A stretch of 20,000 bases of DNA from Pachysolen tannophilus NRRL Y-2460 (taxonomy: Eukaryota). The notes beneath the pieces are model-generated. The model saw nothing but the letters and a program-made list of their open reading frames with translations. It did not search any database and had not been told where the DNA came from. Of the stretch, positions 1 through 20,000 are shown one piece after another. The position numbers and the translations under genes are program-made. The first letter of the stretch is position 1. Each line of letters starts with the position of its first letter. The DNA lies in assembly GCA_001661245.1 (NCBI GenBank), contig KV454018.1:927629-947628 (forward strand), given 5' to 3'.

Positions 1-462
1 CATTGTTGAAAGTAAACCATGAATAGCGTAAACTTCAGGCCTAAGATCCAAAGGTGCTAATTGTGCTATTGAAGCTTCTTCAACTGATTTAAAAGGACCA
101 GTTTCGTCTCCAGAAGGTGAAATGACACCCACAATTGCAGCAAATAACAAAATTATGAAATTATCGATTGGTGAGGCAAATATTATACCACTTATCATCA
201 TCAACAATGTTCCTATGATCATAACATTTTTCCTTCCTATCTTATCACCATACCAAGTGAGATTATACGAAATTGCCGAATCTCCAAGTAAACTCAACGT
301 CATAAATAGTCCAATATTGGATTCAGATATGTTCAAACTTTTCAAATATAATGTCAATATTTGGTTTGTCAGACCATAAGAAGTCAACCTGATAAACACA
401 GAAGCCCATAGTATGCGTATATCACTGGATGAGCTTTGAAGTGTCTCCACAATATGAACCAT
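1..462 (-). CDS. MFS transporter, YJR124C-like; 5' part only, continues beyond the window start
   Basis: Not in the ORF track. Manual translation from ATG (CAT at 460-462, in-frame stop just upstream): MVHIVETLQSSSSDIRILWASVFIRLTSYG[CTG]TNQILTLYLKSLNISESNIGLFMTLSLLGDSAISYNLTWYGDKIGRKNVMIIG...GVISPSGDETGPFKSVEEASIAQL. It has hydrophobic helices, MFS motif A (GDKIGRK) and the GVISPSxxExGPFxSxEEA motif I recall from the YJR124C family. Confidence 0.85.
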   Translation of the reverse strand, partial: MVHIVETLQSSSSDIRILWASVFIRLTSYGLTNQILTLYLKSLNISESNIGLFMTLSLLGDSAISYNLTWYGDKIGRKNVMIIGTLLMMISGIIFASPIDNFIILLFAAIVGVISPSGDETGPFKSVEEASIAQLAPLDLRPEVYAIHGLLSTM

Positions 463-1335: not shown

Positions 1336-4300
1336 TCATCTATGGAAACCGAATTGGTTCATTACACTGTCAATATCTTTCCATAACACATCTGAGTCCC
1401 AGTTATCTGCGTCAAAGTCAAATCCGTTCAAAGGTGAGTCATTTTCGACGTTTTCTGCTTTGAATGGTTGTGATTCAGTGCTATTGTTTATTCTTTCATC
1501 TAAGTTGAGGGTATCCAGAACAACAATGTCATTATTTTTGTCTCTATTTGTGTTTTCCCTTTCTTTTTTATTGAAAGATGTTCTTTTTTTGTTAGAGACC
1601 AGAGCAGAGTTTTCAATTAAGGCCAGATCATCAGTTGGAACTTGATTTGATTGAATATTTTTATTCTCAGTTTCTGTTAATTTTGCAGTTTTCCCATTAT
1701 TATCACTATTGTTGGAGTTTGTAATATTTGTTTTCATTTCAACAACTTTATCAACATTATTATTATCTTGTATTTGCAGGTTTGTAATCTTATTTACATC
1801 TTCAGAGCTTTTTCTTGAACTCTCTAATTTCGACAGGTCGGACAGCTGTCTAGATACAACTTGATTTTTTGGGGAGACGGAGCTACCCAACGATGGCGAA
1901 AGATTATTTGGATTGATCACTTTTTGTAAAAAACTTGATGTAACAGAATTTGCTCTATCATCATTATATTCCTCTGTGTTATTGATTGAAATTGGACGAG
2001 GATCCAAGGGAATTGTTCTAATGATTTTTCTTGCTGATGATTCCGGGTTTAAAGTAGAAGACAAAGTTCTTTGTTTTCTTTTGAAACTTGAACTACTGGT
2101 TGATGACTGTGGTGTGCGGTTATTACCCTCATTTTCATGATGACTTTCAGAGTAAGATGATTCCGAATCTTCGTCATCATCGTCTTCATCTTCGTCAATA
2201 GCATTTTCATTGAAATCATCATCTTTATCGTTGACAACAGCAATGTCATTATTATTATTATTGTTATTATTATTATTTTTGCTATTAATATTATTATTCT
2301 CATTTGAATTTTGAGTAGGACTCAACTTAATCATTCCACATTGTTCTCTTAAAACCCATAAACAATCAAAAAATATAGAAGCGCACATACGAGTTCTAAT
2401 GGTTACACTGACGTTCTGAACATTTCCCTTTTCATTAAGAATTCTGAATAAAGCCCACATATTCCTCATTATACCAGAAGATCTATAAGCCATATCATGC
2501 TTTAAGACAGATGCCTTCAATGCTAGCTTTATTGCATGTTGATATAATTCCTTACCAGCTCCAACATCTAGTACATCACTATAAGGTGAATTTATTAATC
2601 TCGCAATAATACAAGCTGCTTGCCAAATAGTTAAAATATAAACACCAGGTAAATATCTCACAAATTTTTTATCTCTTATTTGTGAGTTTTGAGAATGTGC
2701 AATCAAAGCCAAAGCAGCATTATAAACTCTGACAAAACCTCTTCTTAGTTCAAATGAAGCTACTTTGGATGTATCCAAGAAATGATAAGTCAATATATGT
2801 AACCTTGTAGATAACAAAGAGAATCTTCTAAGATCATCCAATGGTGAAGTTAAATCAGTACTTAATCTGATTTCTAATTCGTCCAATTGTTCTAGCAATA
2901 TTTGTAACAAAGGTAATCTTTCTGTAGCATCAATTAAACCTAAAGGATCCATCGGATTATTATTCAAAGTTTTTGCAACTTGATCTTCTAAGTGCTGTAT
3001 TTCCATCATTTGTGTCATTACAGCGGGTATCCGAATTTGAGAACCTGGTCTACAAGCAGCCAAAACCGCTGCATCGAATTGAACAAATGCGGGAAAACCA
3101 AATGCAGTAGCTACGGTCTGGCTTACAATGTTACATCCAACCCATGTTCTGATGTGTTCATTCAAGAGTTCTAAATTGTTTTTTTTCAAATTATTGAAAG
3201 AATCTGTTTGACCTGGTGAATGTAATCCAATTCTTATAGCTTGAAATAATGCAATACCTATAGTATGCCATGAAGTGTCTGCTGACAATGAAGAAGTTAA
3301 AGGAGGCCAAAAAGTGTATAGCAACAATGCCTGAACTGAAAACACACTAGATACGTTTAATATTGGTTCATCAACTTCCGAGGGAACATATCTTGTTATC
3401 GGACTGATTGCTATTTCTGCCAACAAGGACTTTAACAATGACGATAGTTTCATGTATAAATCATTGCGTGATGATGAAGAATGCAGGTTGGCATTTACAT
3501 TTGTCTGGGCTGACATATCTGGTGTTTGCGTTACAGATGTATCCTTGGTTAATTTACACCTTCTTAATGAAATAAACATAATTGTCCAAAATAATACGGG
3601 ACAAAGACGATATATTCTTTCTGGACCTTTGCTTATATCAACCACTGGTAAAATTGGATGATAATTTTCACAAAATTCTTTAAATAAAATCTTAATATCT
3701 TCTGGTGATAATGAAACATCACCCAATTGCTTATTTGTACATTTTAATTGATTTTCTGTCAAGAATACATTTCTTTCCATTGACCTTGGCTCTGGTATCT
3801 TATTACCAAATAAATTATTTATATTATTGTCAATACCAGACCTTGCAATAGAAGGCTTATTAGAAGTAGTTTCCTGCAGAAATACTGAACTAGAGCCTGG
3901 TGTTGATTTCATTGAGGTGTATGGTGATGGCAGTCCAGTAGGTAGAGTATTAGTTAAAGGCAGCGGTGAATCAAATCTAGGTGTGGAATAACTATTATTA
4001 TTATGATTATCCAGCAATGCAGATCTTAAAGGAGGTAAGTGAGATTGATACTGAGGTTGAGACTGAGGTTGAGACTGAGACTGAAAATGAGACTGTGTTG
4101 CATAAGGATTTGATTGACGCTGTTGATGATGAAACTTTACTTCAGCATCTGATATTGAAGAAGCTCCTAATAATGAACTATTTCTTTCTAAATTCTGTAA
4201 TAAACCTTGTGCTCCTGCTTCTTGTAACGTCCTTCGTAAGTCGCTGAATTCTTTTTCTATTTGCGCTATCCTTGCTCTCTTATATGTTCTCTTATAATCT

Positions 4301-4716
4301 GGTTTTAAAGTACAGGGCAAATTTCTTTTCACACATCTCGTACATGGATTTGGTTGTTTTTCATATGCATCACACTTTGATTTTTGTTGCCTACATTCAA
4401 CACATGCTAACCTTTTAACCCTCTTACCAGTTGTTGTAGTCAAAACAGTGTTTTTATAGTTACTATCGTTATTAATAGCACTATTTTCAGAATCATAATC
4501 TGTACTACCAGCTTTCATATTATTATTATTACTATTAGTAGTAGTAACCTTGCTAAATAAGTCATCACTGCTACCGGTTTTTAAATTATTGATCTTGTTC
4601 TCAATATCCATATTCTCCAAAACTTTCTGAGGGCTATTAATTACATTAGCCGCCCGTGCCAAAGAATTCAACCCTAAGTGTTCTCCAGTCGGAATGAAAT
4701 CTTTATTATTATTCAT
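1336..4716 (-). CDS. SEF1: Zn(II)2Cys6 transcription factor Sef1, 1126 aa
   Basis: Zinc cluster ACVECRQQKSKCD...PCTRCVKRNLPC, followed by a coiled coil. Leu3/Sef1-type middle region (YHPILPVVD, FWTI, LYTFWP, IWQAACII, RTRMCASIFFDCLW). Acidic C-terminal tail (WDSDVLWKDIDSVMNQFGF). Asn-, Gln- and Asp-rich linkers. The paralog LEU3 cannot be fully excluded without an alignment. Confidence 0.7.
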   Translation of the reverse strand: MNNNKDFIPTGEHLGLNSLARAANVINSPQKVLENMDIENKINNLKTGSSDDLFSKVTTTNSNNNNMKAGSTDYDSENSAINNDSNYKNTVLTTTTGKRVKRLACVECRQQKSKCDAYEKQPNPCTRCVKRNLPCTLKPDYKRTYKRARIAQIEKEFSDLRRTLQEAGAQGLLQNLERNSSLLGASSISDAEVKFHHQQRQSNPYATQSHFQSQSQPQSQPQYQSHLPPLRSALLDNHNNNSYSTPRFDSPLPLTNTLPTGLPSPYTSMKSTPGSSSVFLQETTSNKPSIARSGIDNNINNLFGNKIPEPRSMERNVFLTENQLKCTNKQLGDVSLSPEDIKILFKEFCENYHPILPVVDISKGPERIYRLCPVLFWTIMFISLRRCKLTKDTSVTQTPDMSAQTNVNANLHSSSSRNDLYMKLSSLLKSLLAEIAISPITRYVPSEVDEPILNVSSVFSVQALLLYTFWPPLTSSLSADTSWHTIGIALFQAIRIGLHSPGQTDSFNNLKKNNLELLNEHIRTWVGCNIVSQTVATAFGFPAFVQFDAAVLAACRPGSQIRIPAVMTQMMEIQHLEDQVAKTLNNNPMDPLGLIDATERLPLLQILLEQLDELEIRLSTDLTSPLDDLRRFSLLSTRLHILTYHFLDTSKVASFELRRGFVRVYNAALALIAHSQNSQIRDKKFVRYLPGVYILTIWQAACIIARLINSPYSDVLDVGAGKELYQHAIKLALKASVLKHDMAYRSSGIMRNMWALFRILNEKGNVQNVSVTIRTRMCASIFFDCLWVLREQCGMIKLSPTQNSNENNNINSKNNNNNNNNNNDIAVVNDKDDDFNENAIDEDEDDDDEDSESSYSESHHENEGNNRTPQSSTSSSSFKRKQRTLSSTLNPESSARKIIRTIPLDPRPISINNTEEYNDDRANSVTSSFLQKVINPNNLSPSLGSSVSPKNQVVSRQLSDLSKLESSRKSSEDVNKITNLQIQDNNNVDKVVEMKTNITNSNNSDNNGKTAKLTETENKNIQSNQVPTDDLALIENSALVSNKKRTSFNKKERENTNRDKNNDIVVLDTLNLDERINNSTESQPFKAENVENDSPLNGFDFDADNWDSDVLWKDIDSVMNQFGFHR

Positions 4717-4799
4717 TTAATGAGATGGTGGAGAAATATGTATTATTACTCAATTACTGTGAAGGCTTTTTTTTGCTTCTTTAATGTTTACTTTTTAAA

Positions 4800-4830
<31 letters not shown>

Positions 4831-4877
4831 TTAAAATTAAAATCATCACATCATACACGACCTATTTACCAGTTAGT

Positions 4878-6479
4878 TCAAATTCTAATAGGTGAAAAGC
4901 ATTCACTTTGTTCTATTGATTTATTGAATTCCTTATCAGTTTCTTCATCTATGGAAACCTTATGAGTATCTTTGATGGGGTTTGAATTGTTTGTATTCAT
5001 GAGGTTTGAGTTTGAGTTTTTATTGGTGGTTTTATTGTTATTGTTCAAGATATTTGATATTTCTGATAATGGCAAGTCTTGATTTTTTTTCAATTTTTCC
5101 TGTAATATTAGTTTATTTGTTAATAATTGTAGTGATTTTTCTATATTTCTTATCTTTGAGTTTAATTCTTCTTCTTTGAATGAATTGTTGCTTTTAGGGA
5201 CGTTAGGTACGTTATGGACGTTAGGTACGTTAAAGATGGACTTTGGAGGTGAAGAAGGTATACGTGGTGAAGATTGTAATCTTTGAGTTTTCCGTCTTGC
5301 GGTTTTAAGTTTTCTTTCTTCGATTCTCCTCTTAAGTTGTTTCATTGAATAAGTAGTATTATCGGAACTGGTATTGGCTTCATCTTTATAGATTGTTCCT
5401 ATATTGATCAATTTTTCAGTGTTATCAATATCTTGATTTAATAACTTGTAGTTTTTCAATGAAATAAAATCTGAATTATTTTCTTGATTTTCTTTATTTT
5501 CATTTTTCAATTTTGTTTCTCGTATTAAAGATCTAAGAGAAGCAACTTCTTTCTTGATTAATTCGTTTTCAATCAGTAATTCTTGTTTTTCAATTTCCTT
5601 CCTCAATAATGCTGCTTTATTATCCTTTAATAATTTTTGATTTTCTTCTTCCAATGATATTATTTTCTTGTTTAAATTTTCTAATATTTCTTGTTTTTTC
5701 TGCAATATTTTTAAAACTTCAAAGTTATTATCATTGTCATTTTTAGTGGGTTCTTCAATGTTGCGTCTTTCATTATCTTCCAGTTTAGGTTTATGTTCGG
5801 TTGTTGATTTAATTTCATTGGGTATTTGGGTTATCTTAATATTATTTGCAGTATTTATCTTTGTCTGTAAATAATTTGAATCTTCTTTAGATAATCCCAT
5901 ATTATCTCCTGAACCTAATACCATATTGAAAACGTTAGAGCCAATACCACTTATCAGTGACCATATCATTCCAGTAACAAATTTTGTTAATTTTTTGGAT
6001 CTAGTAGTTTTCAAATTGTTGTTTCTATAGTTTAAATTTTTTTTAATAGAATTCGGCATACCACTTCGATAGTTGGATGTTTTTTTACGAATAGCATAAT
6101 CTTTACCACCGCCAAATGATTTATTATTATTATTATTATTATTGTAATCATATCTATTCCTCAAGATTGATTTCAAAGGTCTTGTAGAAGTTATACAAGA
6201 TTTTTCAAATCTCCCACGTGAACTTGGTCTTAACAAATTCGTTGCCTCCAGAAGATTTGGCTGAACTTCTGGTAATGGAAAATTGCTCGATCTTGATCGA
6301 AGAAATCTTAACGCCTCATCTTTACTTCCTTGTTGTCCCAATGTCAATGTTCGTCCTCCAATTTTTGAATTCTTCAGAAAAGGTTTTAAACCATCATTCA
6401 CACGATGACGGAAATATGGCCTTAACGGCCTTGAATTTGAATTAAAATTATCATTATTATCTCTAATATCATATACCAT
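4878..6479 (-). CDS. Unrecognised 533-aa protein: basic N-terminus, one hydrophobic/amphipathic segment, coiled coil, SP-rich C-terminus
   Basis: 1.6-kb ORF. The first ATG is at 6479 (the ORF track starts at a TTG at 6488). Heptad-like region EVLKILQKKQEILENLNKKIISLEEENQKLL...VASLRSLIRE; segment LTKFVTGMIWSxISGIGSNVFNMVLG. Confidence 0.8.
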   Translation of the reverse strand: MVYDIRDNNDNFNSNSRPLRPYFRHRVNDGLKPFLKNSKIGGRTLTLGQQGSKDEALRFLRSRSSNFPLPEVQPNLLEATNLLRPSSRGRFEKSCITSTRPLKSILRNRYDYNNNNNNNKSFGGGKDYAIRKKTSNYRSGMPNSIKKNLNYRNNNLKTTRSKKLTKFVTGMIWSLISGIGSNVFNMVLGSGDNMGLSKEDSNYLQTKINTANNIKITQIPNEIKSTTEHKPKLEDNERRNIEEPTKNDNDNNFEVLKILQKKQEILENLNKKIISLEEENQKLLKDNKAALLRKEIEKQELLIENELIKKEVASLRSLIRETKLKNENKENQENNSDFISLKNYKLLNQDIDNTEKLINIGTIYKDEANTSSDNTTYSMKQLKRRIEERKLKTARRKTQRLQSSPRIPSSPPKSIFNVPNVHNVPNVPKSNNSFKEEELNSKIRNIEKSLQLLTNKLILQEKLKKNQDLPLSEISNILNNNNKTTNKNSNSNLMNTNNSNPIKDTHKVSIDEETDKEFNKSIEQSECFSPIRI

Positions 6480-6618
6480 TATGAGCAATAGCCTTCGCCC
6501 TAAGTTTCTTCTAGTTAATTCACCACGATTAATTGAAACAAAAATTAGTATAAAGAAATAATAAAATGTAAAAATTATTTGTTTACCTTTTTTTTATCTT
6601 TGTATCATCAAAACCTGT

Positions 6619-6624
6619 ACGCGT
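6619..6624. promoter_or_regulatory. MCB element (ACGCGT) in the divergent promoter between the orphan ORF and DOT5; a second ACGCG core lies at 6700-6704
   Basis: Exact MluI box 140 bp upstream of the orphan ATG, in very CG-poor DNA. Confidence 0.5.
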
Positions 6625-6777
6625 TGTTTTATGTTAATTTTTCAATTTTCTTAATATTTTTTCATTTGGTGCACCGTTTTGATCAATACGCAATTGAAAA
6701 CGCGGATTCGGCCAAATAATGGGGTAATATTGAAAGGCAAGAGGCAACACAACAACATGTTTTTTTTTTCAAATAAT

Positions 6778-6785
6778 TATATAAA
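6778..6785 (+). promoter_or_regulatory. Probable TATA box for DOT5
   Basis: TATATAAA about 55 bp upstream of the ATG at 6833. Confidence 0.4.
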
Positions 6786-6832
6786 AGCATTTGAGTAATT
6801 GTTGAGGGTAGTAAGGTATTTAAGTCCAAGTC

Positions 6833-7501
6833 ATGGTTCGTCGTTCAATTAGGGTTGCAGCTAAAAAGGAAGCTGGTAATGGAGAAAAATTGAAGCAACA
6901 AGTTGTTGATGTTGATACGCCTGAAAGTAGTATTGATGCACCTGTTACAAAGAAAAGTAAAGAAGAACCCCAAATTTCAAAAGATGTTAAAGATGTTAAA
7001 GATGAAGAAGATGAAGAAGATAGTGATGAGGTATCAAACAAGAAATTAGAAATTGGTGATGAAATTCCAGATTTAACTTTTAAAGATCAAGATGAAAATG
7101 ATATCAACTTGAAAGAATTATCAAAAGAAAATAGAATCTTGGTAATATTTGCCTATCCTCGTGCTTCTACACCTGGTTGTACAAGACAAGCTTGTGGATT
7201 TGCTAAGAATTATCCAGATTTAAGTTCAAAGGCAACTTTTATTGGATTATCAGCAGATTCACCAAAGGCTCAAAAAAATTTTGAAGTTAAACAAAAATTA
7301 CCATTTAAATTATTATCTGATCCTAAAAGAGACCTCATCGGGAAACTCGGTGCAAAGAAACATCCTACTGGTATCATAAGATCTCATTGGATCTTTGTTG
7401 ATGGTATTTTAAAAATTTCCAAAGTTGGAATTAGTCCAGAGGCAAGTGTCACTGGAGCTAAACAAGACGTTGAAAAATTAAGTGATGAACTAAAAATTTA
7501 A
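6833..7501 (+). CDS. DOT5: Nuclear thiol peroxidase (BCP/PrxQ peroxiredoxin), 222 aa
   Basis: YPRASTPGCTRQACGF active site (PxxxTxxC with a second Cys), GLSADS, LLSDP, RSHWIF; charged N-terminal extension starting with an RRSxR motif. Confidence 0.93.
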   Translation: MVRRSIRVAAKKEAGNGEKLKQQVVDVDTPESSIDAPVTKKSKEEPQISKDVKDVKDEEDEEDSDEVSNKKLEIGDEIPDLTFKDQDENDINLKELSKENRILVIFAYPRASTPGCTRQACGFAKNYPDLSSKATFIGLSADSPKAQKNFEVKQKLPFKLLSDPKRDLIGKLGAKKHPTGIIRSHWIFVDGILKISKVGISPEASVTGAKQDVEKLSDELKI

Positions 7502-7661
7502 AAAAAAAAAAAAAAAATCTTACTTCTTTCAAATTCCTTTTTCAATCTACTTTTTCTATTTAGTTTTAAAAAATAATTCGTTAATTCAATAATTGATTTA
7601 TGTGAACTAGTTAGTCATTTACTGACCAAGAATCTTTGTAGGTATTAAACATTTCTCTCAT

Positions 7662-7928
7662 TGCAAGGTCGGAGAAGATCTGGAAAAAATTACTGGAGAA
7701 GATCTGGAGAGGAGATTGGAGAAGTTTGAAGAAGTATGGAAATCCGGTTTGAATTTGCATTTATTTTTTTTTCCGAATTATTTTTTTCCGGAACTTTTTT
7801 TTTTTCTTTTTCCGAACTTCTCCAGTATTTTTTCCAAATCTTCTCCAGTTTTTTTTTTTTCCATTTTTTTTTTCTCCAGATTTTCTCCAGATTTTCTCCA
7901 GAAATGTTTTTCCGATCTTCTCCTTGCA
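7662..7928. promoter_or_regulatory. Inverted and tandem repeat array of CTGGAG and CGGA-N-N-A motifs upstream of GDB1
   Basis: 7671-7701 is the reverse complement of 7817-7846 with 1 mismatch and 1 indel. (TTTTCTCCAGA)x3 at 7870-7902. Seven CTGGAG/CTCCAG hexamers. The repeat structure is observed; the regulatory role is inferred. Confidence 0.6.
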
Positions 7929-8109
7929 GGAGGAAACTTGATAAGATAATGGAATGAAAGCAAAAATACAAAGAAAATAAGTGTATATATGAGTAGAGAG
8001 GTTTTTATGTTTCATTTAATTTAAATCTTTATTGGTTAATTAATTGTTGAAATATTGAAAAAAGGTATTGTCAATTTTTTGGCATTAGCATTGGCATTAC
8101 TGGAGTAAG

Positions 8110-11100
8110 ATGACTAGAACTGTTCTTTTACGAATAGATGAATCTGGTGAGCCGCTCTTAGGTTATAGTAAGGGGATAAATAAAAATGGTGTAATCACGT
8201 TGCCTAGTATACCTTATCTAAATAATGATTCAAAGTCGGCTATATTCATCATAAAATTTTTGATTGAACCTGGTACTAGAATTAGTAATAAAGGAACTGT
8301 TTGGTCAAATTTTCCTCCTAACTATGATACTTATTTTGATAGACAAACATTTTACAAGCATGTAATAGATCATACATCGTTTGATAAAGATTATTCATTT
8401 GATATTCCAATTTTCAAACCTGGTGCTTACTGTTATTACGTTTCATATTATTCCATTAAAAATGATGTTGAAGGCTCTCAGGCATTAATCACAACTAGAA
8501 AATTTTATATTAATGTTCCTCCGTCATTAGAGATAAATAAAAAATCTTTACCTTTGAATTCTATCAATTTACAATCAATGGTTAGTAAATGGATGGGATC
8601 TGAATTATCTGATTGGAACAAATATTTTAGCCTAGTTAAGGAAAAAGGTTATAATATGATTCATTTTACTCCATTACAACATAGAGGTCAATCTGACTCG
8701 CCTTATTCCATCTATGACCAATTGAAGTTTGATCCAAACATTTTCGAAAATAATGATCAAGTTAAAAAAATTATTAGCGATTTGGAAAAAGATTATTCCA
8801 TATTATCATTAACTGATATTGTTTGGAATCATACTGCAAACAATTCTGCTTGGTTAAGAACTCATCCGGAATCGGGTTACAATAGAGTAACTGCTCCACA
8901 CTTAATCCCAGCTATTGAATTAGATATATCTCTTCAAAAATTTAGTAGCAAAATGAAACGTTATGGGTTTCCAACAGTTATTACATCAACTTCAGATTTA
9001 CTTAAAATTATGGATGGAATCAAAGTACATGTCTTGGGTGAATTAAGATTATGGGAATTCTATGTGTTAGATATTGACGATTTTTCACAAAAGTTGGAAA
9101 AAAATTGGAATGATTGTTCAGATAAAATTCAACCAATTGCAGATATTCCAACTGATATTAAAGCAAATCTTGGTGATTTAGCAAGATTCGTTGTTGAATA
9201 TTGCAATAATGGTGTTCAATATTCTTTGAATTGCAAAAGGTTTGGTAATTCACTAGATATCTTGAAATTTATTTCAATCTTGAAAAACTTATATCCTGAA
9301 AAAAAAGCTTATCTGGATATAAAGTCGGAATCGTTAAATATAATATCAGCAATTAATTTGCCCTTATATAAGGAATATGATGAAGACGTTGAAACAATTT
9401 TGGAGCAATTGTACAATCGAATTAAATACTTGAGGTTAGATGGAAATGGTCCAAAATTGGGGGAGATCACTGAAGAATCGCCTTTGACTGAAAATTATTT
9501 TACAATTTTCAAAGGTCCAGATAATGAACAATGGGAACTAGCTAATAATGGTTGGATCTGGAATGGGAACCCATTGGTAGACTTTGCTTCCTCTAAATCA
9601 AAAAGTTATTTAAGAAGAGAAGTGATCATTTGGAGCGATTGTGTGAAGCTACGGTATGGTTCTTGTGAAGAAGATTCTCCTTATCTTTGGTCAAGAATGA
9701 TGGAGTATACAGAATTGTGTGCTTCGATATTTTGTGGCTTCAGAATAGATAATTGCCATTCTACACCATTACATGTTGGTGAAAAGTTATTAGATGTAGC
9801 AAGAAAGGTGAATCCACAGCTTTATGTTGTCGCTGAGCTATTTACAGGAAGTGAAGAGATGGATAAATTATTTGTGGAAAGATTAGCAATCAATTCGTTA
9901 ATTCGAGAAGCAATGCAGGCATGGTCTGTTCAAGAATTATCAAGATTACTCCATCGTCATGGCGGTCGTCCGATTGGATCATTAAAATGGTTACCTCTTG
10001 ATGAATTTTCATATCCTATTGGTAACAAATCTGTAAATGATCTTCTTGAGAAAGTACCTGAGCCTAATATAGATAAAGTATCTGAAATTGCAATCCCTAG
10101 AGTGTTGACAGCAACGTCTCCCCATGCATTGTTTATGGATTGTACCCATGATAATACTACACCTTATGATAAAAGGTGCGTGGAAGATACTTTACCAACT
10201 GCTGCCTTAGTTTCATTATGTTCAAGTGCCACTGGAACAGTTTTTGGATATGATGAGTGCTTTCCCCACTTGTTAAACGTAGTCACAGAACATAGGTCTT
10301 ATACTACTGAAGCTCATATTGGTATAAGTCAAGTCAAGACCAAATTGAATCTGATAAGAAAAGAAGTCAATCAGCAAGGAACTGATATTTCGGATGAACA
10401 CGAAGCTTATGTTCATCATGAAGGACAATATATTACTTTCCATAGATCCAATCCCAGAACGGGAAAAGGATATTTTTTGATTGCAAGAACAAAGTTCACA
10501 ACTGAAGAAGATCAATGGCTTGCTCCCATTTATCTTGCAGGAACTAAAGCTAAACCAGAGTTTAGTTACAGCTTAGTCAAAATAGGGGAACCCGATGAGT
10601 CTCCATCAAAATTTATCAATCCGGTTCCAACAAAGTTAGAAACTCTACCTGAACCTACTGTGGAATATGATTTTGACAAAAAAGAAACAAAAATAACACT
10701 TCCTGATAAATTTCCACAGGGTTCGATCGCTATATTATCAACTTCTGTTTTAACTTGTAATGATGAACTCGATAAATTTGTCAGGACAGGTGCGATTGAG
10801 GCTACAAGGTTATTAACATTGGTAGATTTGAATGTTTTGATATATCGTTGTGAATCCGAAGAAAGAGATGCTAGTGCTGGTAGAGATGGTGTCTACAACG
10901 TTCCTAATTATGGGAATTTGGTATATGCTGGCCTTCAAGGTTGGATATCAGCTTTAGGGAATGCTATATCTGACAATGATTTAAGCCACCCCTTGGTTGA
11001 ACATTTAAGAAATGGTTATTGGGCTTTGGATTACATTGTCAATCGGCTAGATAAATATTTACCCTCTGATGGTGTGTCGCTTTTCTTGAGCTGGCTACGT

Positions 11101-12696
11101 TCTAGAATGATTCAAATCAAAAATGTGCCTCTCTTTCTTTTACCTCGTTATTTTTCCCTTTTTGTTGGAACTGCTTATGAAGCTTGTCGGTATAGAGCCT
11201 TGAGTTTACTATCTCCTATGATTAGAGATGGAACGTGGTTTGTGCAATCTTTGGGTATGACTTCCATTCAGATGTTAGGTAAAATGCGGTCAGCTTCTTT
11301 AAAACCCTTTGAGGAAGTACCTTCTTTAAGTGCTGGATTACCTCATTTCTGCTATGACTATATGCGTTGTTGGGGAAGAGATGTTTTTATTAGTATTAGG
11401 GGATTATTGATTGTAACTCAGCGTTTTGATGAAGCAAAATGTCATATTTTGGATTTTGCATCTACTTTGAAGCATGGATTAATTCCAAATTTGTTAGGTT
11501 CCGGGAAGGAACCACGTTATAACGCAAGAGATGCGGCTTGGTTTTTTTTGCAAGCAGTCCAAGATTATACTGATGCATGTCCTAATGGATTGTCTATTTT
11601 GAAAGAAAAAGTGAAGCGCAGGTTTCCCTTGGATGATACACATGTACTGGTTGATGATCCTTTAGCATTTAGTTATGAAACTTCAATTGAAGATATCATT
11701 TATGAGATTTTATCTCGCCACGCTAAAGGCATTAAATACAGGGAATTCAATGCTGGATCAAATTTAGATTCAAAAATGAAAGATGAAGGTTTTAATGTAG
11801 AGGTGAAAGTTGATTGGAAAACTGGTTTAATTCATGGTGGAAACCAGTGGAATTGTGGTACGTGGATGGATAAAATGGGCGAGAGTAGTCTTGCTGGAAA
11901 CATCGGATATCCTGGAACTCCCAGAGATGGAGCAGCCATCGAGATCAATGGATTGTTGAAAAGTTGTCTAAAATTTGTCAACAAACTTTATACAGAAGGA
12001 TTATTCTCTTATGATACGGTCTATACACAAGACGGACAGGAAATATTGTTGACCAAATGGGAGCAATTGATTCAGGAGAATTTTGAAAGATGTTACTATA
12101 TTCCAGAAGATCCAGCAGAAGATCACAATTATGATCTCGATGAAGGAATTATAAATAGAAGAGGAATATATAAGGATTTGTACAAATCAGGTAAACCTTA
12201 TGAAGATTATCAATTACGTCCCAATTTTTCCATTGCGATGACAGTTGCACCGGAACTATTTACACCAGTTAAAGCTTTGAGAGCATTACAAATTGCTGAT
12301 AAAGCAATTAGAGGCCCTGTTGGAATGAAAACGTTGGATCCATCTGATTACAATTATAAACCATATTATTTGAATAATGTTGATAGTACTGATTTTGCAA
12401 CTGCTAAAGGTAGAAATTATCACCAGGGACCGGAATGGGTATGGTGTTTTGGATATTTTATGAGAGCGTATTCCAAGTTTCATATCATAGAACATAGTAA
12501 TCGTAAAGATGTTAATTTCATTTACAATTTAATAGGAAAGCGTTTAGAAGGCAATAGAAAATGGCTAAGAGAGAGTCCATGGGCAGGATTGACCGAACTT
12601 ACTCAAAAGGACGGGCTGTTTTGTAATGATTCTAGTCCATCACAGGCATGGTCGACCTCTTGCTTATTAGATCTATATCATGATTTAAGAGTTTAA
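8110..12696 (+). CDS. GDB1: Glycogen debranching enzyme (4-alpha-glucanotransferase / amylo-1,6-glucosidase), 1528 aa
   Basis: GH13 motifs GYNMIHFTPLQ, DIVWNHTA, GFRIDNCHSTP, VAELFTG, DCTHDN. Glucosidase-domain motifs WGRD, HGLIPNL, TWMDKMG, NYHQGPEW, LTELT...QAWS. Confidence 0.98.
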   Translation: MTRTVLLRIDESGEPLLGYSKGINKNGVITLPSIPYLNNDSKSAIFIIKFLIEPGTRISNKGTVWSNFPPNYDTYFDRQTFYKHVIDHTSFDKDYSFDIPIFKPGAYCYYVSYYSIKNDVEGSQALITTRKFYINVPPSLEINKKSLPLNSINLQSMVSKWMGSELSDWNKYFSLVKEKGYNMIHFTPLQHRGQSDSPYSIYDQLKFDPNIFENNDQVKKIISDLEKDYSILSLTDIVWNHTANNSAWLRTHPESGYNRVTAPHLIPAIELDISLQKFSSKMKRYGFPTVITSTSDLLKIMDGIKVHVLGELRLWEFYVLDIDDFSQKLEKNWNDCSDKIQPIADIPTDIKANLGDLARFVVEYCNNGVQYSLNCKRFGNSLDILKFISILKNLYPEKKAYLDIKSESLNIISAINLPLYKEYDEDVETILEQLYNRIKYLRLDGNGPKLGEITEESPLTENYFTIFKGPDNEQWELANNGWIWNGNPLVDFASSKSKSYLRREVIIWSDCVKLRYGSCEEDSPYLWSRMMEYTELCASIFCGFRIDNCHSTPLHVGEKLLDVARKVNPQLYVVAELFTGSEEMDKLFVERLAINSLIREAMQAWSVQELSRLLHRHGGRPIGSLKWLPLDEFSYPIGNKSVNDLLEKVPEPNIDKVSEIAIPRVLTATSPHALFMDCTHDNTTPYDKRCVEDTLPTAALVSLCSSATGTVFGYDECFPHLLNVVTEHRSYTTEAHIGISQVKTKLNLIRKEVNQQGTDISDEHEAYVHHEGQYITFHRSNPRTGKGYFLIARTKFTTEEDQWLAPIYLAGTKAKPEFSYSLVKIGEPDESPSKFINPVPTKLETLPEPTVEYDFDKKETKITLPDKFPQGSIAILSTSVLTCNDELDKFVRTGAIEATRLLTLVDLNVLIYRCESEERDASAGRDGVYNVPNYGNLVYAGLQGWISALGNAISDNDLSHPLVEHLRNGYWALDYIVNRLDKYLPSDGVSLFLSWLRSRMIQIKNVPLFLLPRYFSLFVGTAYEACRYRALSLLSPMIRDGTWFVQSLGMTSIQMLGKMRSASLKPFEEVPSLSAGLPHFCYDYMRCWGRDVFISIRGLLIVTQRFDEAKCHILDFASTLKHGLIPNLLGSGKEPRYNARDAAWFFLQAVQDYTDACPNGLSILKEKVKRRFPLDDTHVLVDDPLAFSYETSIEDIIYEILSRHAKGIKYREFNAGSNLDSKMKDEGFNVEVKVDWKTGLIHGGNQWNCGTWMDKMGESSLAGNIGYPGTPRDGAAIEINGLLKSCLKFVNKLYTEGLFSYDTVYTQDGQEILLTKWEQLIQENFERCYYIPEDPAEDHNYDLDEGIINRRGIYKDLYKSGKPYEDYQLRPNFSIAMTVAPELFTPVKALRALQIADKAIRGPVGMKTLDPSDYNYKPYYLNNVDSTDFATAKGRNYHQGPEWVWCFGYFMRAYSKFHIIEHSNRKDVNFIYNLIGKRLEGNRKWLRESPWAGLTELTQKDGLFCNDSSPSQAWSTSCLLDLYHDLRV

Positions 12697-12956
12697 AAAT
12701 ATTAATGAGTTATGTTAAGTTATGTTACTTCCCCTCGTTTTTTATATAATTTTTATTATTTTCTTTTTTTTTTTTTTTTGCTTTAGTTTTGAATAAAATT
12801 TAAAAGTCTCTAGTATGATGAGATATTGTTATCGGATCTATGATAATGTCTGAAAAGTAAGCAGATAGAATTAGATGAAAACTATTTTATAAGAAGTAAA
12901 ATAAAATTTAAAAACAAATAGGAGAAATTAAGAGAAAAACAAGAAATTTTCTAAAT

Positions 12957-13760
12957 TTAATCACCAAGCTGCCAAACCTCCAATCCTAGTATTTTAAATT
13001 GAACATGTGAACTCAAAGGTTCATTTCCAAAAGTTTGTACTGAATCGCTTGCACCTTTATATAAATCGCTGTCTATCCATAATCCAAATTTCCCATCACC
13101 AGATCCGATTGAAATAAAATCGTGATTAGAATATATTATAAAATCATTTAAAGATGTATAAGGAAAAACTTTTAATCTCATTTGTTCATGAGATGAAGAA
13201 ATTGTACTTTCTAAATCGTCATCACTATTATTATTATTAATATTAGTATTCGTTAAATTATTCAAATTTGGTATTCTTGAAATTTCAGTTTTCCATAAGA
13301 AACATTCTCCATTTCCGTAATATCTTTTTTTATCCATCGGCCTTAAATATTCATTCACATAACAACCAAAAAGTTGATGATTTTCATCTCTAATAACTAA
13401 TAAATAACCAAATTTCCTGGATCGAAACGTATCTTTAGGAATCATTGAATTATATAAAGTTCTTAAAGATATCCCATTTTGTTCGATAGAATATAATAAT
13501 TGCCAATCATGAGAAATTTGTAATCTTGGAGGTAAATGAAATCTTAATTCTTCAGCTAAAGGCAAACTCAATAACTGGTGTTTTGTTGAAGATTTATATC
13601 CGTTTAATTGTAGAGGGGTGAGCGGCGGGTCACTCAAAAAATTATAATTCTCGTTATTATCTGAAGTTATTGAAGGAGAAGGAGACTTTGGAGCTCTTTT
13701 AAAGATTTCACTTAATCTTTTGAATTTTTCCTTTGAATTTGAAGAAGCTTGTGATTTCAT
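12957..13760 (-). CDS. OXR1: Oxidation resistance protein 1 (TLDc domain), 267 aa
   Basis: WQLLYSIEQNGISLRTLY, YYGNGECFLWK, IGSGDGKFGLWID, TFGNEPLS, LEVW. Start moved to the first ATG (MKSQASS, 13760); the 47-aa extension in the ORF track begins at a non-ATG codon. Confidence 0.93.
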   Translation of the reverse strand: MKSQASSNSKEKFKRLSEIFKRAPKSPSPSITSDNNENYNFLSDPPLTPLQLNGYKSSTKHQLLSLPLAEELRFHLPPRLQISHDWQLLYSIEQNGISLRTLYNSMIPKDTFRSRKFGYLLVIRDENHQLFGCYVNEYLRPMDKKRYYGNGECFLWKTEISRIPNLNNLTNTNINNNNSDDDLESTISSSHEQMRLKVFPYTSLNDFIIYSNHDFISIGSGDGKFGLWIDSDLYKGASDSVQTFGNEPLSSHVQFKILGLEVWQLGD

Positions 13761-14218
13761 ATTAGATTCTATAGAAGAGTATGAAGACAGTAGCAGCAGC
13801 TGAAAGAAGTCATAACTTGATTTTTCAATTGCTCTGTCTTTTATCTTTACTTTTTTTTTTTTTCTCTCCTTCACTTTCCATGATTCCCTTATTCTTAACA
13901 CACTATACTTGTATTATTATTATGTTTTTATATTTATCGTTTTAAAGACAATTAAATGTACCCATTATTTTTCAAAATCACGAAACTTCTTGTAAAATTC
14001 AAGTAAAATTATATTAAAGTCCCCAATTGGATTTCATCAATTACTAATTAACTAAGATTAAATTTTTCACCTAAATCTGCATTAAGCTAGGTGTATCGCA
14101 TTGTTTTTATCTTTAATTTTTTATTTTTATTTTTTTATTTTTTTATATTTTTTTTTATTTAAGGCCCCATGTCTAGGCAATTGTTGTCAAATTTCAGCTA
14201 ATTGTTGTCGAATTCATA

Positions 14219-16531
14219 CTAAATGTCGGTAAGATCTGAATCACCATCACTTTCATCGACAATGTTTTCTAAACCATCACTATCACTTTTTAAAACTCTA
14301 CCATATTTCTTTCTAGGACGCTTACCTCCATTATAACCAGATGCATGATTTGAATGAGTATTTGAAATCGAGTTCATATTAGCATCACCATTAGGATGTA
14401 AGCTCACACCTTCGTCGACATCTGGATGATTGATAAATTCATCATCTACAGCTGAGGAACCCCAACATTCATGCTTATTTGAAGTGAAAATTAAAGAATT
14501 TTTGTAAAACCAATCAGTTATTGATTCATCAATAGCAGAAACAATAGGCCTCAACTGGGTAGTTTTATCTATAAAATTAATTGAAGCTTTTACTAAATTT
14601 TTAACTTCACGATGACCTAGTAAATGTATTATTCCATTATATGAATCACCAACACCAATAAATACCAATTTTGAAACTTGAAAATATTGAATGTAGTTAT
14701 CCCATATATATAATAGAATTTCTTGGGATGTATTTATATTATTGTAATTATCATCATCGCTACCAGTTATAGAAGTAGGGATATTAACATCAATTAACCC
14801 ATATTTTTGTTTTAAAGCCCATTCTATAAATCTCAAACATGAGTCTATAACTATGGAATTTGAAGAATCTAAAATACCTGAAACAGGATCACGTTGGGCC
14901 CAAACTTGAGCAGGATCATGAACTAATATTATTAAAGTTTGAGCTTCGTAAATTGAAGGAGAAGCTAAAACCAGATTTTCTAAAGAAACTGATTCTAGTT
15001 TTGTTGATAAGAGTATTGGTAAATTGATAAAATCATACAATTTAAATAATTCCTTTGATTGCTGTAACCTAATAGAATCATGCAATCTATAATTGAAATT
15101 ATCTACCAATTCCTTATCTGTTGAGTCCGAAGTTACTTGAGAAATGTATCTTGGAGTAGATAATCCACCATATTCAGGTTTCATTGATCTCCAGTATTTA
15201 GACTGAATTTTAATAACTTTTTCAATAGTTTCAATAGTTTCTGGTTTTGCAATTTTTTTCCATAATTCCTCAGGAGGTTCACCAACCAATATTTTAGCAA
15301 CGCTCAATGCAGACTTAGCAATTGAGTCTAAGTTATAACCACCTTCCAACACGACGCATAAATTACCTTTGGCTAAAGATTTCAATTGATGAGTCATATG
15401 ACCGTATCCAGCTGGGGATACATGGCATCCACCAATAACATCACCATCAGCAGCATCAAATCCCGAACTTATTATAACCAAATCCGGGTTGAATTCGTAA
15501 CAAATAGGCATGATAACTCTTCTAAATGCATACATATAGTCAGCATCATCTTTGCCGCCACTGGCCCAAGGAATATTAATATTATAACCTTCACCTTCAG
15601 CTTCGCCACACTGATCAGCAGAGCCTGCAGTTGTTCCTGGATAATATTTCCCCTGTTCATAACGGTGTAAAGATATGTATAAAACACGGGGATCATTTAT
15701 AAAAGCCTTTTGAGTTCCATTACCATGATGGACATCCCAATCAACAATTACTATTTTCCGTACACTTTCTGGATAATTTTTCAAAATATTTTTAGCTGCT
15801 ACCGCAACATTTGAAAACAAACAAAAACCTCCAGGAACATCTGGTTCAGCATGATGACCTGGAGGTCTAACTACTGCCAATGCATTCTTCACCTTCCCTT
15901 CCACTACAGATTTACAAGCTTCGATAGCTCCACCACATGATAATTTTGCACCTAAGAAAGAGTCATGATTAAAATAAACCGAATCTCCCTTTTCAGTGGC
16001 TTCCAATAGCTGCTGCTTATTCATCAAAGTTGTACTTTCAATGAACTTTAAATGTTCTTCTGAGTGAACCAATAGTATTTCTTCTTCTGTAGCTTCTCTT
16101 ACTGGAATCTTAAGCATCAAATCTCCAATTTCGTTACGTCCTATTAATTGGGGGTCATTTATCAATCCATTCTCTGCTAGTATTTTATAAATACGATATA
16201 TTCGACGAGGATCTTCTGGATGAGGATCAATATATTCATAATACGACGTATAAATCTTTGCATGATATCTCATTCTAACATCGTAACACAATCCAGTTTT
16301 TTTCGGAATGTAGAAAAGTTTTGGTGAACAAATTGGTACAATTATTTGTTTCTCATTCAATTCAGTAGTATCTCCATTATAATTGGATTCAACAATCTTC
16401 CTTTTAATTCCATTCAAAGTCTCCTTCTCATCATTAACAGCAGAATTTTCATCTTTCATAACAACATCATTATCCAGAACTTGTATAGGTCCCAGAGTTT
16501 CCCCCATTTTAGATGCATCTTCCGAATTCAT
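14219..16531 (-). CDS. HDA1: Class II histone deacetylase Hda1 with C-terminal Arb2-like domain, 770 aa
   Basis: HPEDPRRI, RPPGHHAE, GFCLFSNVA, DWDVHHGNGTQ, SGFDA, LEGGY; Arb2-like region IILVHD...YGLIDVNIP...PRKKYGRVL. Confidence 0.97.
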   Translation of the reverse strand: MNSEDASKMGETLGPIQVLDNDVVMKDENSAVNDEKETLNGIKRKIVESNYNGDTTELNEKQIIVPICSPKLFYIPKKTGLCYDVRMRYHAKIYTSYYEYIDPHPEDPRRIYRIYKILAENGLINDPQLIGRNEIGDLMLKIPVREATEEEILLVHSEEHLKFIESTTLMNKQQLLEATEKGDSVYFNHDSFLGAKLSCGGAIEACKSVVEGKVKNALAVVRPPGHHAEPDVPGGFCLFSNVAVAAKNILKNYPESVRKIVIVDWDVHHGNGTQKAFINDPRVLYISLHRYEQGKYYPGTTAGSADQCGEAEGEGYNINIPWASGGKDDADYMYAFRRVIMPICYEFNPDLVIISSGFDAADGDVIGGCHVSPAGYGHMTHQLKSLAKGNLCVVLEGGYNLDSIAKSALSVAKILVGEPPEELWKKIAKPETIETIEKVIKIQSKYWRSMKPEYGGLSTPRYISQVTSDSTDKELVDNFNYRLHDSIRLQQSKELFKLYDFINLPILLSTKLESVSLENLVLASPSIYEAQTLIILVHDPAQVWAQRDPVSGILDSSNSIVIDSCLRFIEWALKQKYGLIDVNIPTSITGSDDDNYNNINTSQEILLYIWDNYIQYFQVSKLVFIGVGDSYNGIIHLLGHREVKNLVKASINFIDKTTQLRPIVSAIDESITDWFYKNSLIFTSNKHECWGSSAVDDEFINHPDVDEGVSLHPNGDANMNSISNTHSNHASGYNGGKRPRKKYGRVLKSDSDGLENIVDESDGDSDLTDI

Positions 16532-16928
16532 CGTAGCTTATCGTTAGCTTAATATATAAATTTTTTGAGTTTTTCCAAAACAAAAAAAAAAANAAAAAAA
16601 CAATTAACAATTAAATTTTTTTTTTTTCAAATTCCAATATGAAATCAAATCAAATCATACAATATTTAAACCAAACATATGATACTTCTTCTTCTTCTTC
16701 TTCTTTTTCTCCAGAAAATGAAGTTAAACCAATAGTAACTTAAAATATAAAATATATGGTTTACTACAAACCTTCAAAAATCGGTTTTTCACTTCTCGAT
16801 ATACAAATTTACTGAACCGTCGAGATGGAACGGAAATTGACAGATACTTAATCTTAGTCTTTGAAATAAGACAAAAACCATAATATATTCAAGTTAAGTA
16901 TATAATAATTACAAAAGAAACTAGATGG

Positions 16929-16969
16929 GTTCAGGTATGTTCAGGCATGTTCAGGCATGTTTCAAGAAT
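16929..16969. repeat. 10-bp tandem repeat GTTCAGGYAT x3 plus one degenerate copy
   Basis: GTTCAGGTAT GTTCAGGCAT GTTCAGGCAT GTTTCAAGAAT. Confidence 0.85.
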
Positions 16970-16978
16970 GTTGTAAAC

Positions 16979-17890
16979 TTATTTTTCTTTACTCCACAGT
17001 TTCTTGGCTTCGGGGACTATTTTTTTCCATTCAAAGATACCAGGATTTACGAGTTTTGCGCCTTCTCCTTTATTATAATCAATGTAATTTCTTTTAGGAC
17101 TTGTCATTGTAGCTGTGACTACATTCATAAAATCAATGATATTAATATTTTGCTTTTTATCAGCCTCTGCAGCAATTTGTGATTGTGTATCGTGGGACCT
17201 TTCTTCTACGATTAGTTTAACTCCTTTTACCTGCTCGTATAATTTAAATAATTCATTTTGTGTGTAAGCATCACCTTGGATGCAAACTTTTTCAGGTAAT
17301 TGCAGAGGTGGATGATGAGCCAATGATGCCAATGACTTTCCAATATCCGATACAAATGTTACAGGAATTTCAATATTGCCGTCGCCTACTCTTACAGCAT
17401 GATTTGGCTCTAGGCTTAAAAATAACACTGGTGGTTTGCATATAACCCAATCAGCAAACCAACCAACTTTCAAATGCACGCATTTCAAGCGATCATCGTG
17501 GAAAACATTTTTAAATCCAAGTAAGTTTGGATAATCATTTTTCTCTGGACCATAATTAGGGGTATAAACTGTAGGAAAGAAAAGCTTTACCCCGGCTTTA
17601 GCAGCAGCAGCTATTAAAGATTCGGTATTACCACGAGTTCCAAGATCTATTACGACATCAACACCATTGAAAGCAGAAACTAATGAAGATTCATCACTGT
17701 AGTCCACTTTGTGATATGATACCTCAGAATCAGAAAATTCATCAAATTTGTTATTGCTGGTTGTAATTGCACGAATGGGAAATTTATAATATTCCTTAAA
17801 CTGAGGTGAAGTCAAAGCTAACAATGTTGGTTTACCCAATTCACCGTTGAGACCTACAACGGCGACCGCTTTCTTATCTGAAGAACTCAT
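16979..17890 (-). CDS. NmrA-like / isoflavone-reductase-like atypical SDR (CIP1-like NAD(P)-binding protein), 303 aa
   Basis: N-terminal GxxGxxG (VAVVGLNGELGK), VDYSD...AFNGVDVVI, AAAKAGVKLFFP, GWFADW, GDGN...VTFVSDIG. Confidence 0.85.
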   Translation of the reverse strand: MSSSDKKAVAVVGLNGELGKPTLLALTSPQFKEYYKFPIRAITTSNNKFDEFSDSEVSYHKVDYSDESSLVSAFNGVDVVIDLGTRGNTESLIAAAAKAGVKLFFPTVYTPNYGPEKNDYPNLLGFKNVFHDDRLKCVHLKVGWFADWVICKPPVLFLSLEPNHAVRVGDGNIEIPVTFVSDIGKSLASLAHHPPLQLPEKVCIQGDAYTQNELFKLYEQVKGVKLIVEERSHDTQSQIAAEADKKQNINIIDFMNVVTATMTSPKRNYIDYNKGEGAKLVNPGIFEWKKIVPEAKKLWSKEK

Positions 17891-19081
17891 GGTTACTCAC
17901 GGATTAATAATTGGTCAAAAAAAATTGTCTATAGTTTGAAACTTAATTTTTCTTTTGCAATTTTACAGATGGAAATATAGATTGTCGAGGTTATACCATC
18001 TTATATAGTTATCAAAAAAATGTTGAGCAATTGGGATTCTAATGGACATTGTATAATTGCTGCGAGAGCCAGACTTAAAACCGTTATTTGCGAACATTTG
18101 CGGAGACTATGGAAATAACCAATGTCTGTAACCTCAGAAAAAAGGACATCAATTTTACTCAGTAACTGATTAGCGAGAAAACAAGAAATAATATAAAGTT
18201 TTCAGTCAAATTGCATATGATATGCATCGAGAAATGGATTTTTTATAGAAGGATAGTTTTTTTTTTATATATAGCTTCAACAGTATCAGCGAGGATCAAT
18301 CCTATAATGAAGATCTAATATTGCTGTTTTTACACGTCGCATGAAAAAGTGTAAAAATAAGAGTTACTTTGTTTTGCTAATTAGCAATATTTGTAGCATA
18401 AAAGCAAACGGCTGTAATTAAACGTGAAAGAAGTTGAAAGAAAACAATTTTAACTATAAATCGTTTAGGCTTTATCGATGCTATAAACCGAAGATGATGC
18501 ATAAATTCAAAGTACACCGAAAAACTCCGTTGATAATGCATGAAGAATGCAATGGTTTTCAGGTCTGAAAATTAAATTTTACGAGGCTTCTGTATTCAAA
18601 TAGATGATTGATATACCCACCGGTATCGAGAAAAGTTTAGTTAGAGGAAAGATTAGGGTCTTCTGCAAAAAGTAAAAATATAGAGTTTCGAAAAATGGGT
18701 TCACTATATTATAAAGAAAGATGAAAACTGGGTTTAAAGTTTGAAAGCAAACAGTTTTGTTCTAAATAATACATAACAAAAAATTGAAAGCGATTAACAA
18801 AAGACTCTACAAAAAATAATTTTAACATTTATGATATGGCAGCAATGTATATATTCAATGAGAACATGAAACTGTATTTATCGAGGTGTTAAACATTCCG
18901 TTTAAAAAACACGGAATACAAAGAGATTGTGTATATAAGTAATACTTAAACAAAAAAAACATAATAAGGCTCGAACTTGAAATTACATACTAATGATTCA
19001 ATTTAACTACGTAATGAAATAAGGAATAAACTATCTTTTAATGAAAAAATGAATATTTGCTGTAGAGTGGAGAGTAAAAAA

Positions 19082-19103
19082 TGGTGTAAGTGGTGTGAGG
19101 TGT
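19082..19103 (+). repeat. Degenerate internal telomere-like repeats
   Basis: TGGTGTAAGTGGTGTGAGGTGT, about 2.5 imperfect copies of the terminal 9-mer in the same orientation. Confidence 0.65.
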
Positions 19104-19728
19104 AAACAATATGTGAAGTGAAAAGCTCACCTTTCTTTAATAGTGGAAAAGGAATATATAAGTACTGAATCTGATTTATCTAAAAATACCTCACAAAAGC
19201 GTAGAATATTATTTACTTTTCTTAACAGAAATCTGACAATATCAGCAAAAAGACCGATATAATGGTGTATTTGCTGTAGCTTAGAACGGATACCTTTTCT
19301 ACATTATTAGTCCTCGTTAAGTTGTCATCAGCTCTTACGGCTTTATCTTGCATGTAGATCAATGTAGTGTACATCATAGAAATAAGGACATTTGATACTA
19401 GCTAAATGAAAATTATAGAATTAATTAATAAATAAGATATCGAGTCTAAGTTGAAAAATAAACATGGGTAATATTGTTTTTGAACTGAAGAGACGGAAAA
19501 GGAAACTTGAACGTTTAAATGAAGAGTGTACTGTAGATAAGGTGACTACTACCGATGATCGAAAATTTCCAGGAGTTATTTGACGCAAGAAAAATAATCA
19601 TTGATTAAGACTTTAGAGAGTTATTTAAGTTAGAAGAGAATCAAAAGCTGATATTATAAATTATCAAGCAAAAATTGGGGGAAATTAACAAAACGTTAAT
19701 TTGAAACTATGTTTGGAATAATAGAAGA

Positions 19729-20000
19729 AGTGGTGTGAGTGGTGTGAGTGGTGTGAGTGGTGTGGGTGGTGTGAGTGGTGTGAGTGGTGTGAGTGGTGTG
19801 AGTGGTGTGAGTGGTGTGAGTGGTGTGAGTGGTGTGAGTGGTGTGAGTGGTGTGAGTGGTGTGAGTGGTGTGAGTGGTGTGAGTGGTGTGAGTGGTGTGA
19901 GTGGTGTGAGTGGTGTGAGTGGTGTGAGTGGTGTGAGTGGTGTGAGTGGTGTGAGTGGTGTGAGTGGTGTGAGTGGTGTGAGTGGTGTGAGTGGTGTGAG
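19729..20000 (+). repeat. Putative telomeric array (GGTGTGAGT)n, about 30 copies
   Basis: Period-9 array with no C on the + strand. The G/T-rich strand runs 5'->3' towards the window end. One variant unit (A>G at 19765). Contains the GGTGT core common in budding-yeast telomeres. Confidence 0.88.

Follow-up and report, generated by a model that had tools for sequence, protein, structure and literature searches.

The DNA analysed here, a 20,000-nucleotide stretch of the yeast Pachysolen tannophilus NRRL Y-2460 that we call the window (contig KV454018.1, positions 927,629 to 947,628), lies at the end of contig C8 in a genome assembled into 197 contigs (12.6 Mb), has a GC content of 31.7%, and bears on how the codon CUG (CTG in DNA) is read in this organism. 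Six of its eight large open reading frames (ORFs) carry CTG, 26 in total, and under NCBI translation table 26 each of these codons changes from Leu to Ala; ORFs 6833-7501 and 12957-13760 contain none. At the left edge, an MFS transporter gene named by Pfam is represented by its 5′ part (1..462, minus strand); it continues beyond the window and has a CTG at codon 31 (370..372, minus strand). An assembly gap of 304 N (about 909-1212) separates it from a zinc-cluster transcription-factor-like gene, referred to below as SEF1-like (1336..4716, minus strand, 1126 codons), whose 11 CTG codons appear as CAG on the plus strand at 1516, 1600, 1624, 1777, 1834, 1843, 3484, 3877, 3931, 3961 and 4012. The next CTG-bearing frame is an ORF of 533 codons (4878..6479, minus strand) with CTG at 5574, 5781, 5955, 6249 and 6375 and no Pfam match at an E value of 1e-10. 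GDB1, which encodes the glycogen debranching enzyme (8110..12696, plus strand, 1528 codons), has four CTGs, at codons 402 (9313..9315), 748 (10351..10353), 1180 (11647..11649) and 1503 (12616..12618), all on the plus strand. The histone deacetylase gene HDA1 (14219..16531, minus strand) has three, one at 14972 (codon 520) and two, at 16475 and 16493, that are upstream of the start codon used in the database annotation; both GDB1 and HDA1 were named by database matches. An NmrA-like gene (16979..17890, minus strand, likewise named by Pfam) completes the set, with CTGs at 17303 and 16997 that both lie outside its Pfam match (residues 6-124).

The original prediction, made from the letters of the window, had proposed that CTG does not behave as a Leu codon here and that Ala is favored over Ser as its meaning. 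In the ORF translation of the window, every CTG on which it relied, namely the 11 of the SEF1-like gene, the only four of GDB1, and those at HDA1 14972, NmrA 17303 and MFS 370, is in frame at the position it gave, and eight more were found beyond its list: ORF 4878-6479 has five of them, HDA1 another two in its N-terminal part, and NmrA the remaining one, which is C-terminal. Its gene labels SEF1 and YJR124C were confirmed by none of the searches.

We examined the columns in which these codons fall, beginning with GDB1, for which an alignment of 119 homologs provides 462 residues at the four CTG positions. Codon 402 occupies a variable polar column (N26, E23, D20, gap 14, S11, T9, A2, L0); the column of codon 748 holds E28, K25, A22, D18, S6 and L1, that of codon 1180 P68, T20, A10, S8 and L0, and that of codon 1503 E57, A27, D14, S12 and L0. 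Altogether, the four columns hold a single Leu next to 61 Ala and 37 Ser, with Glu, Pro, Asp and Asn common. In the same alignment, columns at CTA, CTT, TTA and TTG are 66-70% Leu. The residues originally given for Saccharomyces cerevisiae were borne out: Pro at GDB1 codon 1180 and Glu at codon 1503 (P0077), and Thr at HDA1 codon 520 (P0188).

The SEF1-like gene displays the same avoidance. None of its 11 CTG codons falls in the block 2341-3480, as had been noted originally, versus 54 of its 101 other Leu codons (Fisher p = 0.0006). With columns counted as conserved from 50% of the 60 aligned homologs upward, 46 of the 101 other Leu codons but none of the 11 CTGs occupy conserved columns (p = 0.003), and no single residue dominates the columns at CTG. 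The distribution of CTG in this gene is more than chance and, judged from these alignments, CTG is not read as Leu.

To place the window in its genomic context, we sampled 40 evenly spaced 10-kb stretches of the genome, which yielded 172 ORFs with 90,571 codons and 530 CTGs. The 80 most CTG-dense of these ORFs and six ORFs of the window, 86 proteins in total, were scanned with Pfam. The ratio of codon usage inside Pfam domains shows CTG to be depleted (0.58) and TTA and TTG to be enriched (1.41 and 1.27, respectively). Because depletion also affects CTC (0.65), which is another rare codon for Leu, it proves little on its own. From the scanned proteins we then excised 72 domain segments centered on CTG-bearing stretches and computed their Pfam scores with tables 11, 26 and 12, i.e. 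with CTG as Leu, Ala and Ser. Fourteen of the 72 matched no Pfam entry at an E value of 1e-4, whichever table was used, and were excluded before counting, which left 58 segments carrying 98 CTGs. Reading CTG as Ala instead of Leu raised the summed score by 74.1 bits, or 0.76 bits per codon, with 45 segments up, 9 down and 4 tied (sign test p = 7e-7). As a control, the rare Leu codon CTA was read as Ala in the same way, and this cost 53.1 bits over 39 codons (−1.36 bits per codon).

A search for the adaptor of this codon found one tRNA gene with a CAG anticodon, 72 nucleotides long, on contig C6 (G000:C6:217831-217902, minus strand). It begins with 5′ GGGC and has the G3:U70 pair that the check suggested along with the original claim names for Ala, as well as A73, G37, and a variable loop of four nucleotides in place of a long arm. 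Its identity to tRNA-Ala of the same genome is 73% (AGC) and 69% (UGC), compared to 56-61% for two tRNAs-Leu and 51% for two tRNAs-Ser. Seven genes have the 5′ end typical of tRNA-Ala, three with the anticodon AGC, three with UGC and this one with CAG; tRNA-Ala(CGC) is not among them. The CAG tRNA has been proposed to derive via such a CGC intermediate (PMC4937558). The codon GCG is rare in the sampled ORFs, at 2.3 per 1000 codons.

A D-arm pattern common to Leu and Ser (class II) tRNAs matched 18 genes, ten of them for Ser (UGA ×3, GCU ×3, AGA ×3, CGA ×1) and eight for Leu (UAA ×4, CAA ×2, AAG ×1, UAG ×1), and none of the 18 has a CAG anticodon. Looser CAG patterns hit four places, none of which is a tRNA, one of these patterns being weak enough that it would miss the known CAG tRNA. 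This census combines patterns with an Rfam search that scored 63 of 1003 candidates, in an assembly with gaps; the Rfam search missed the CAG tRNA that the pattern search found. No tRNA gene was found in the window itself. A competing Leu- or Ser-type CAG tRNA is, on these searches, likely to be absent from the genome.

These findings agree with what is known of this yeast. Mass spectrometry published in 2016 established CUG as an Ala codon in P. tannophilus (Muhlhausen et al., PMC4937558; NCBI table 26), the code was found in Pachysolen, Nakazawaea and Peterozyma (PMC5951914), and CUG-as-Ala is given as diagnostic of the order Alaninales, whose diagnosis also comprises an order-specific protein family (OG0016373) and the rDNA/EF-1alpha phylogeny (PMC11182611). 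The CUG-Ala code is real and already known, and it is used in the database translations of the window genes, which have Ala at all 17 CTG sites checked, including 11 of 11 in the SEF1-like protein (P0361), 4 of 4 in GDB1 (P0001), and codon 520 of HDA1 (P0121). Ala in these translations is prior annotation and not independent proof. Taking the evidence together, we consider it very probable that CUG encodes Ala in this genome and, by the tRNA test, the code belongs to the CUG-Ala code of the Alaninales (NCBI table 26).

We propose the following mechanism. The window is nuclear DNA of a CUG-Ala yeast of the order Alaninales, whose sole detected CAG tRNA gene has an alanine body, Leu- and Ser-type CAG tRNAs being undetected. 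Alanine identity depends mainly on G3:U70 and A73, and alanyl-tRNA synthetase ignores the anticodon (PMC4937558). Because the synthetase recognizes these elements and not the anticodon, tRNA(CAG) would be charged with Ala, and the alanylated tRNA would pair with CUG and insert Ala at every CTG. CTG is one mutation away from CAG, CCG, TTG, CTN, GTG, ATG and CGG, whereas two are needed from any GCN codon; new CTGs would arise mainly at residues of little importance, for example in linkers and Q/P/S-rich tracts, and the codon would therefore cluster in weakly constrained sequence, which would account for the distribution noted originally. Elsewhere in the genome, CTG-rich low-complexity regions were observed at L094:4099-6924, L093:3-2345 and L080:4300-6768, which under table 26 become A/P/Q/S-rich linkers and Ala runs, and one SWIRM-domain gene contains 33 CTGs.

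Several results weigh against reading CUG uniformly as Ala, and we consider them here together with the alternatives that they would favor. The CTG at MFS 370, offered originally as counter-evidence, does fall in a conserved Leu column (L94, I6, M4, A4, Q4, V3 and S2 of 119 homologs) and is the one clear counter-example in the window. At HDA1 codon 520 (T56, Q28, L16, S9, I5 and A2 of 119), Leu also outnumbers Ala, and Leu scores above Ala in 9 of the 58 Pfam segments, by at least 1 bit in two. The MFS site cannot be set aside as part of a decayed gene. In the assembly, the last 148 codons of the gene (its 3′ third) and the intergenic DNA that follows are found in reversed orientation immediately to the left of the window (L108:7518-8149, corresponding to G000:C8 about 926,520-927,150), which would make it a pseudogene broken by an inversion. 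However, contigs built from four of four sequencing runs, representing two samples, join the MFS parts unbroken, with five letters fitting both sides, and all agree on the CTG at 370. Because all four runs have the unbroken orientation, the gene is intact, the pseudogene explanation is ruled out, and the inversion most likely arose as an error of assembly. The inverted stretch matters for the annotation of the P. tannophilus genome, for it breaks an intact gene and truncates the database MFS protein (P0241, 301 amino acids).

Such sites would find a place in mixed decoding, in which CUG is read mostly as Ala and by a minority as Leu, either by wobble of tRNA-Leu(UAG) or by leucylation of the G37-bearing CAG tRNA, so that CTG survives at some conserved Leu positions, MFS codon 31 among them. 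A gene for tRNA-Leu(UAG) does exist (G000:C8:422116-422249), G37 is a Leu-type element (PMC4937558), and MFS codon 31 and the two Pfam segments just mentioned fit Leu best. The published proteomics, however, reports Ala at 97.2% of 907 fully supported CUG positions in Pachysolen, with an ambiguity no greater than that of AUG (PMC4937558), and a few CTGs in Leu columns would be expected from single TTG-to-CTG or CTN-to-CTG changes. We regard mixed decoding as very improbable; if true, this yeast would join Ascoidea asiatica as a second example in which one sense codon has two meanings, here Ala and Leu. Under the CUG-Ala code, MFS codon 31 would represent a tolerated Leu-to-Ala change.

The distinction between Ala and Ser, the latter being the meaning of CUG in Serinales (Candida/Debaryomyces) and in Ascoideales, is finer at the level of proteins. 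Read as Ser, CTG also outscores Leu, by 53.5 bits over the 58 segments (42 up, 12 down), and the codon is flanked on both sides most often by Ser (17 cases) or Gln (11). The excess of Ala over Ser is 20.6 bits over the 98 sites (bootstrap 5.6 to 36.4; Wilcoxon p = 0.036), but the count of segments, 32 up and 22 down, does not depart significantly from even (sign test p = 0.22). The six window segments are neutral, Ser equalling or slightly exceeding Ala in five of them, the differences (Ala minus Ser) being −0.1, 0, −0.6, −0.1, −0.3 and +0.3, with a sum of −0.8 bits. From the window by itself, Ala and Ser cannot be told apart. Of the original claim, the reassignment holds, and so does the preference for Ala by virtue of the tRNA, the Pfam sample and the proteomics; the sequence contexts that were cited from the window do not by themselves favor Ala over Ser.

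Control codons give these values a scale. The true Ala codon GCG loses 0.55 bits per codon when read as Ser (only 11 GCG codons), and the true Ser codon TCG loses 0.48 bits per codon when read as Ala (one of 26 segments lost its Pfam match and was dropped). With a gain of 0.21 bits per codon for Ala over Ser, CTG has the same sign as GCG and the opposite sign to TCG, although the value is smaller than the 0.55 of those 11 genuine GCG codons. Among segments in which the two readings differ by at least 1 bit, 13 favor Ala and two favor Ser. The neighboring residues of CTG point the other way, as Ala is found next to CTG at 0.84 times background and next to GCN at 1.5-1.75 times, but this test is confounded by the single mutational step that connects CTG with CAG and CCG, and a classifier built on it was right for 33 of 59 control codons, which is too weak to use. 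The preference for Ala over Ser from proteins is accordingly modest. It is because this modest signal of the genome sample is joined by the Ala-type tRNA(CAG) and by the published proteomics of the clade that we favor Ala. A Ser-type CAG tRNA was found neither among the 18 class II matches nor with looser patterns, and the one CAG tRNA detected has no long arm and shares 51% identity with the Ser tRNAs, which makes CUG-Ser very improbable indeed.

The standard code, with CTG as a rare Leu codon confined to weakly constrained regions, can draw on the Leu column of MFS codon 31, on Leu in 16 of 119 homologs at HDA1 codon 520, and on the likeness to CTC, which is similarly depleted in domains and aligns to Leu in just 26% of GDB1 cells (5 sites), yet with Leu in 1 of 462 residues at the GDB1 CTG columns, opposite signs of the Ala-minus-Leu score at CTG and at the rare Leu codon CTA, and an Ala-type but no Leu-type CAG tRNA found, we give it practically no weight.

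With CUG-Ala as the preferred reading, the code can be compared to its published description and to its relatives. By its described features, the published Pachysolen tRNA(CAG) has the same Ala-derived body, GGGC start, G3:U70, A73 and G37, and no extended variable loop. The description also has tRNA-Leu(UAG) and tRNA-Leu(AAG) both retained and CUG absent from conserved Leu positions and without a clear tie to conserved Ser positions, as is the case here. The CTG load, 530 in 172 ORFs (about 3.1 per ORF), is similar to the published 16,824 in 5,288 proteins (PMC4937558). Over the features described, we found no difference between the published P. tannophilus code and the code here. Among named homologs, the best ones for GDB1 and HDA1 come from the Pichiales (Kuraishia, Candida boidinii, Ogataea), the sister order of the Alaninales. 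The CUG-Ser codes (Ser1 in Serinales, NCBI table 12, and Ser2 in Ascoideales) resemble the present one in that CTG is avoided at conserved Leu positions, and Ser fits the CTG columns here better than Leu does. They differ in that CUG is read by a long-armed tRNA-Ser(CAG), of which no example was found here, and in that Ala provides the modestly better fit. Both the reassignment and the tRNA behind it were reported in 2016-2018, and a taxonomic order is now defined by them. In practical terms, table 26 has to be used for translating genes of the P. tannophilus genome, and CTG codons must be recoded whenever a gene is transferred to or from this yeast.

Two features apart from the nuclear code were noted. 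The mitochondrial contig (G000:C10, 28,450 bases) encodes a tRNA of 73 nucleotides with an AAG anticodon (L115:5987-6059), in which a variable region of five nucleotides replaces the long arm usual for Leu. Among CUN codons, the mitochondrial ORFs mainly use CTT, in contexts that we take to resemble those of Leu, and CTA occurs a few times. At the other end of the window from the MFS gene, about 1.8 kb in which no ORF reaches 80 codons (17900-19700) lie between the NmrA-like gene and a telomere-like array, and degenerate copies of AGTGGTGTG occur near 19080-19105. The array itself (19729-20000), at the end of contig C8, comprises 30.2 copies of AGTGGTGTG with a 99% match and is probably the telomeric repeat of P. 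tannophilus.

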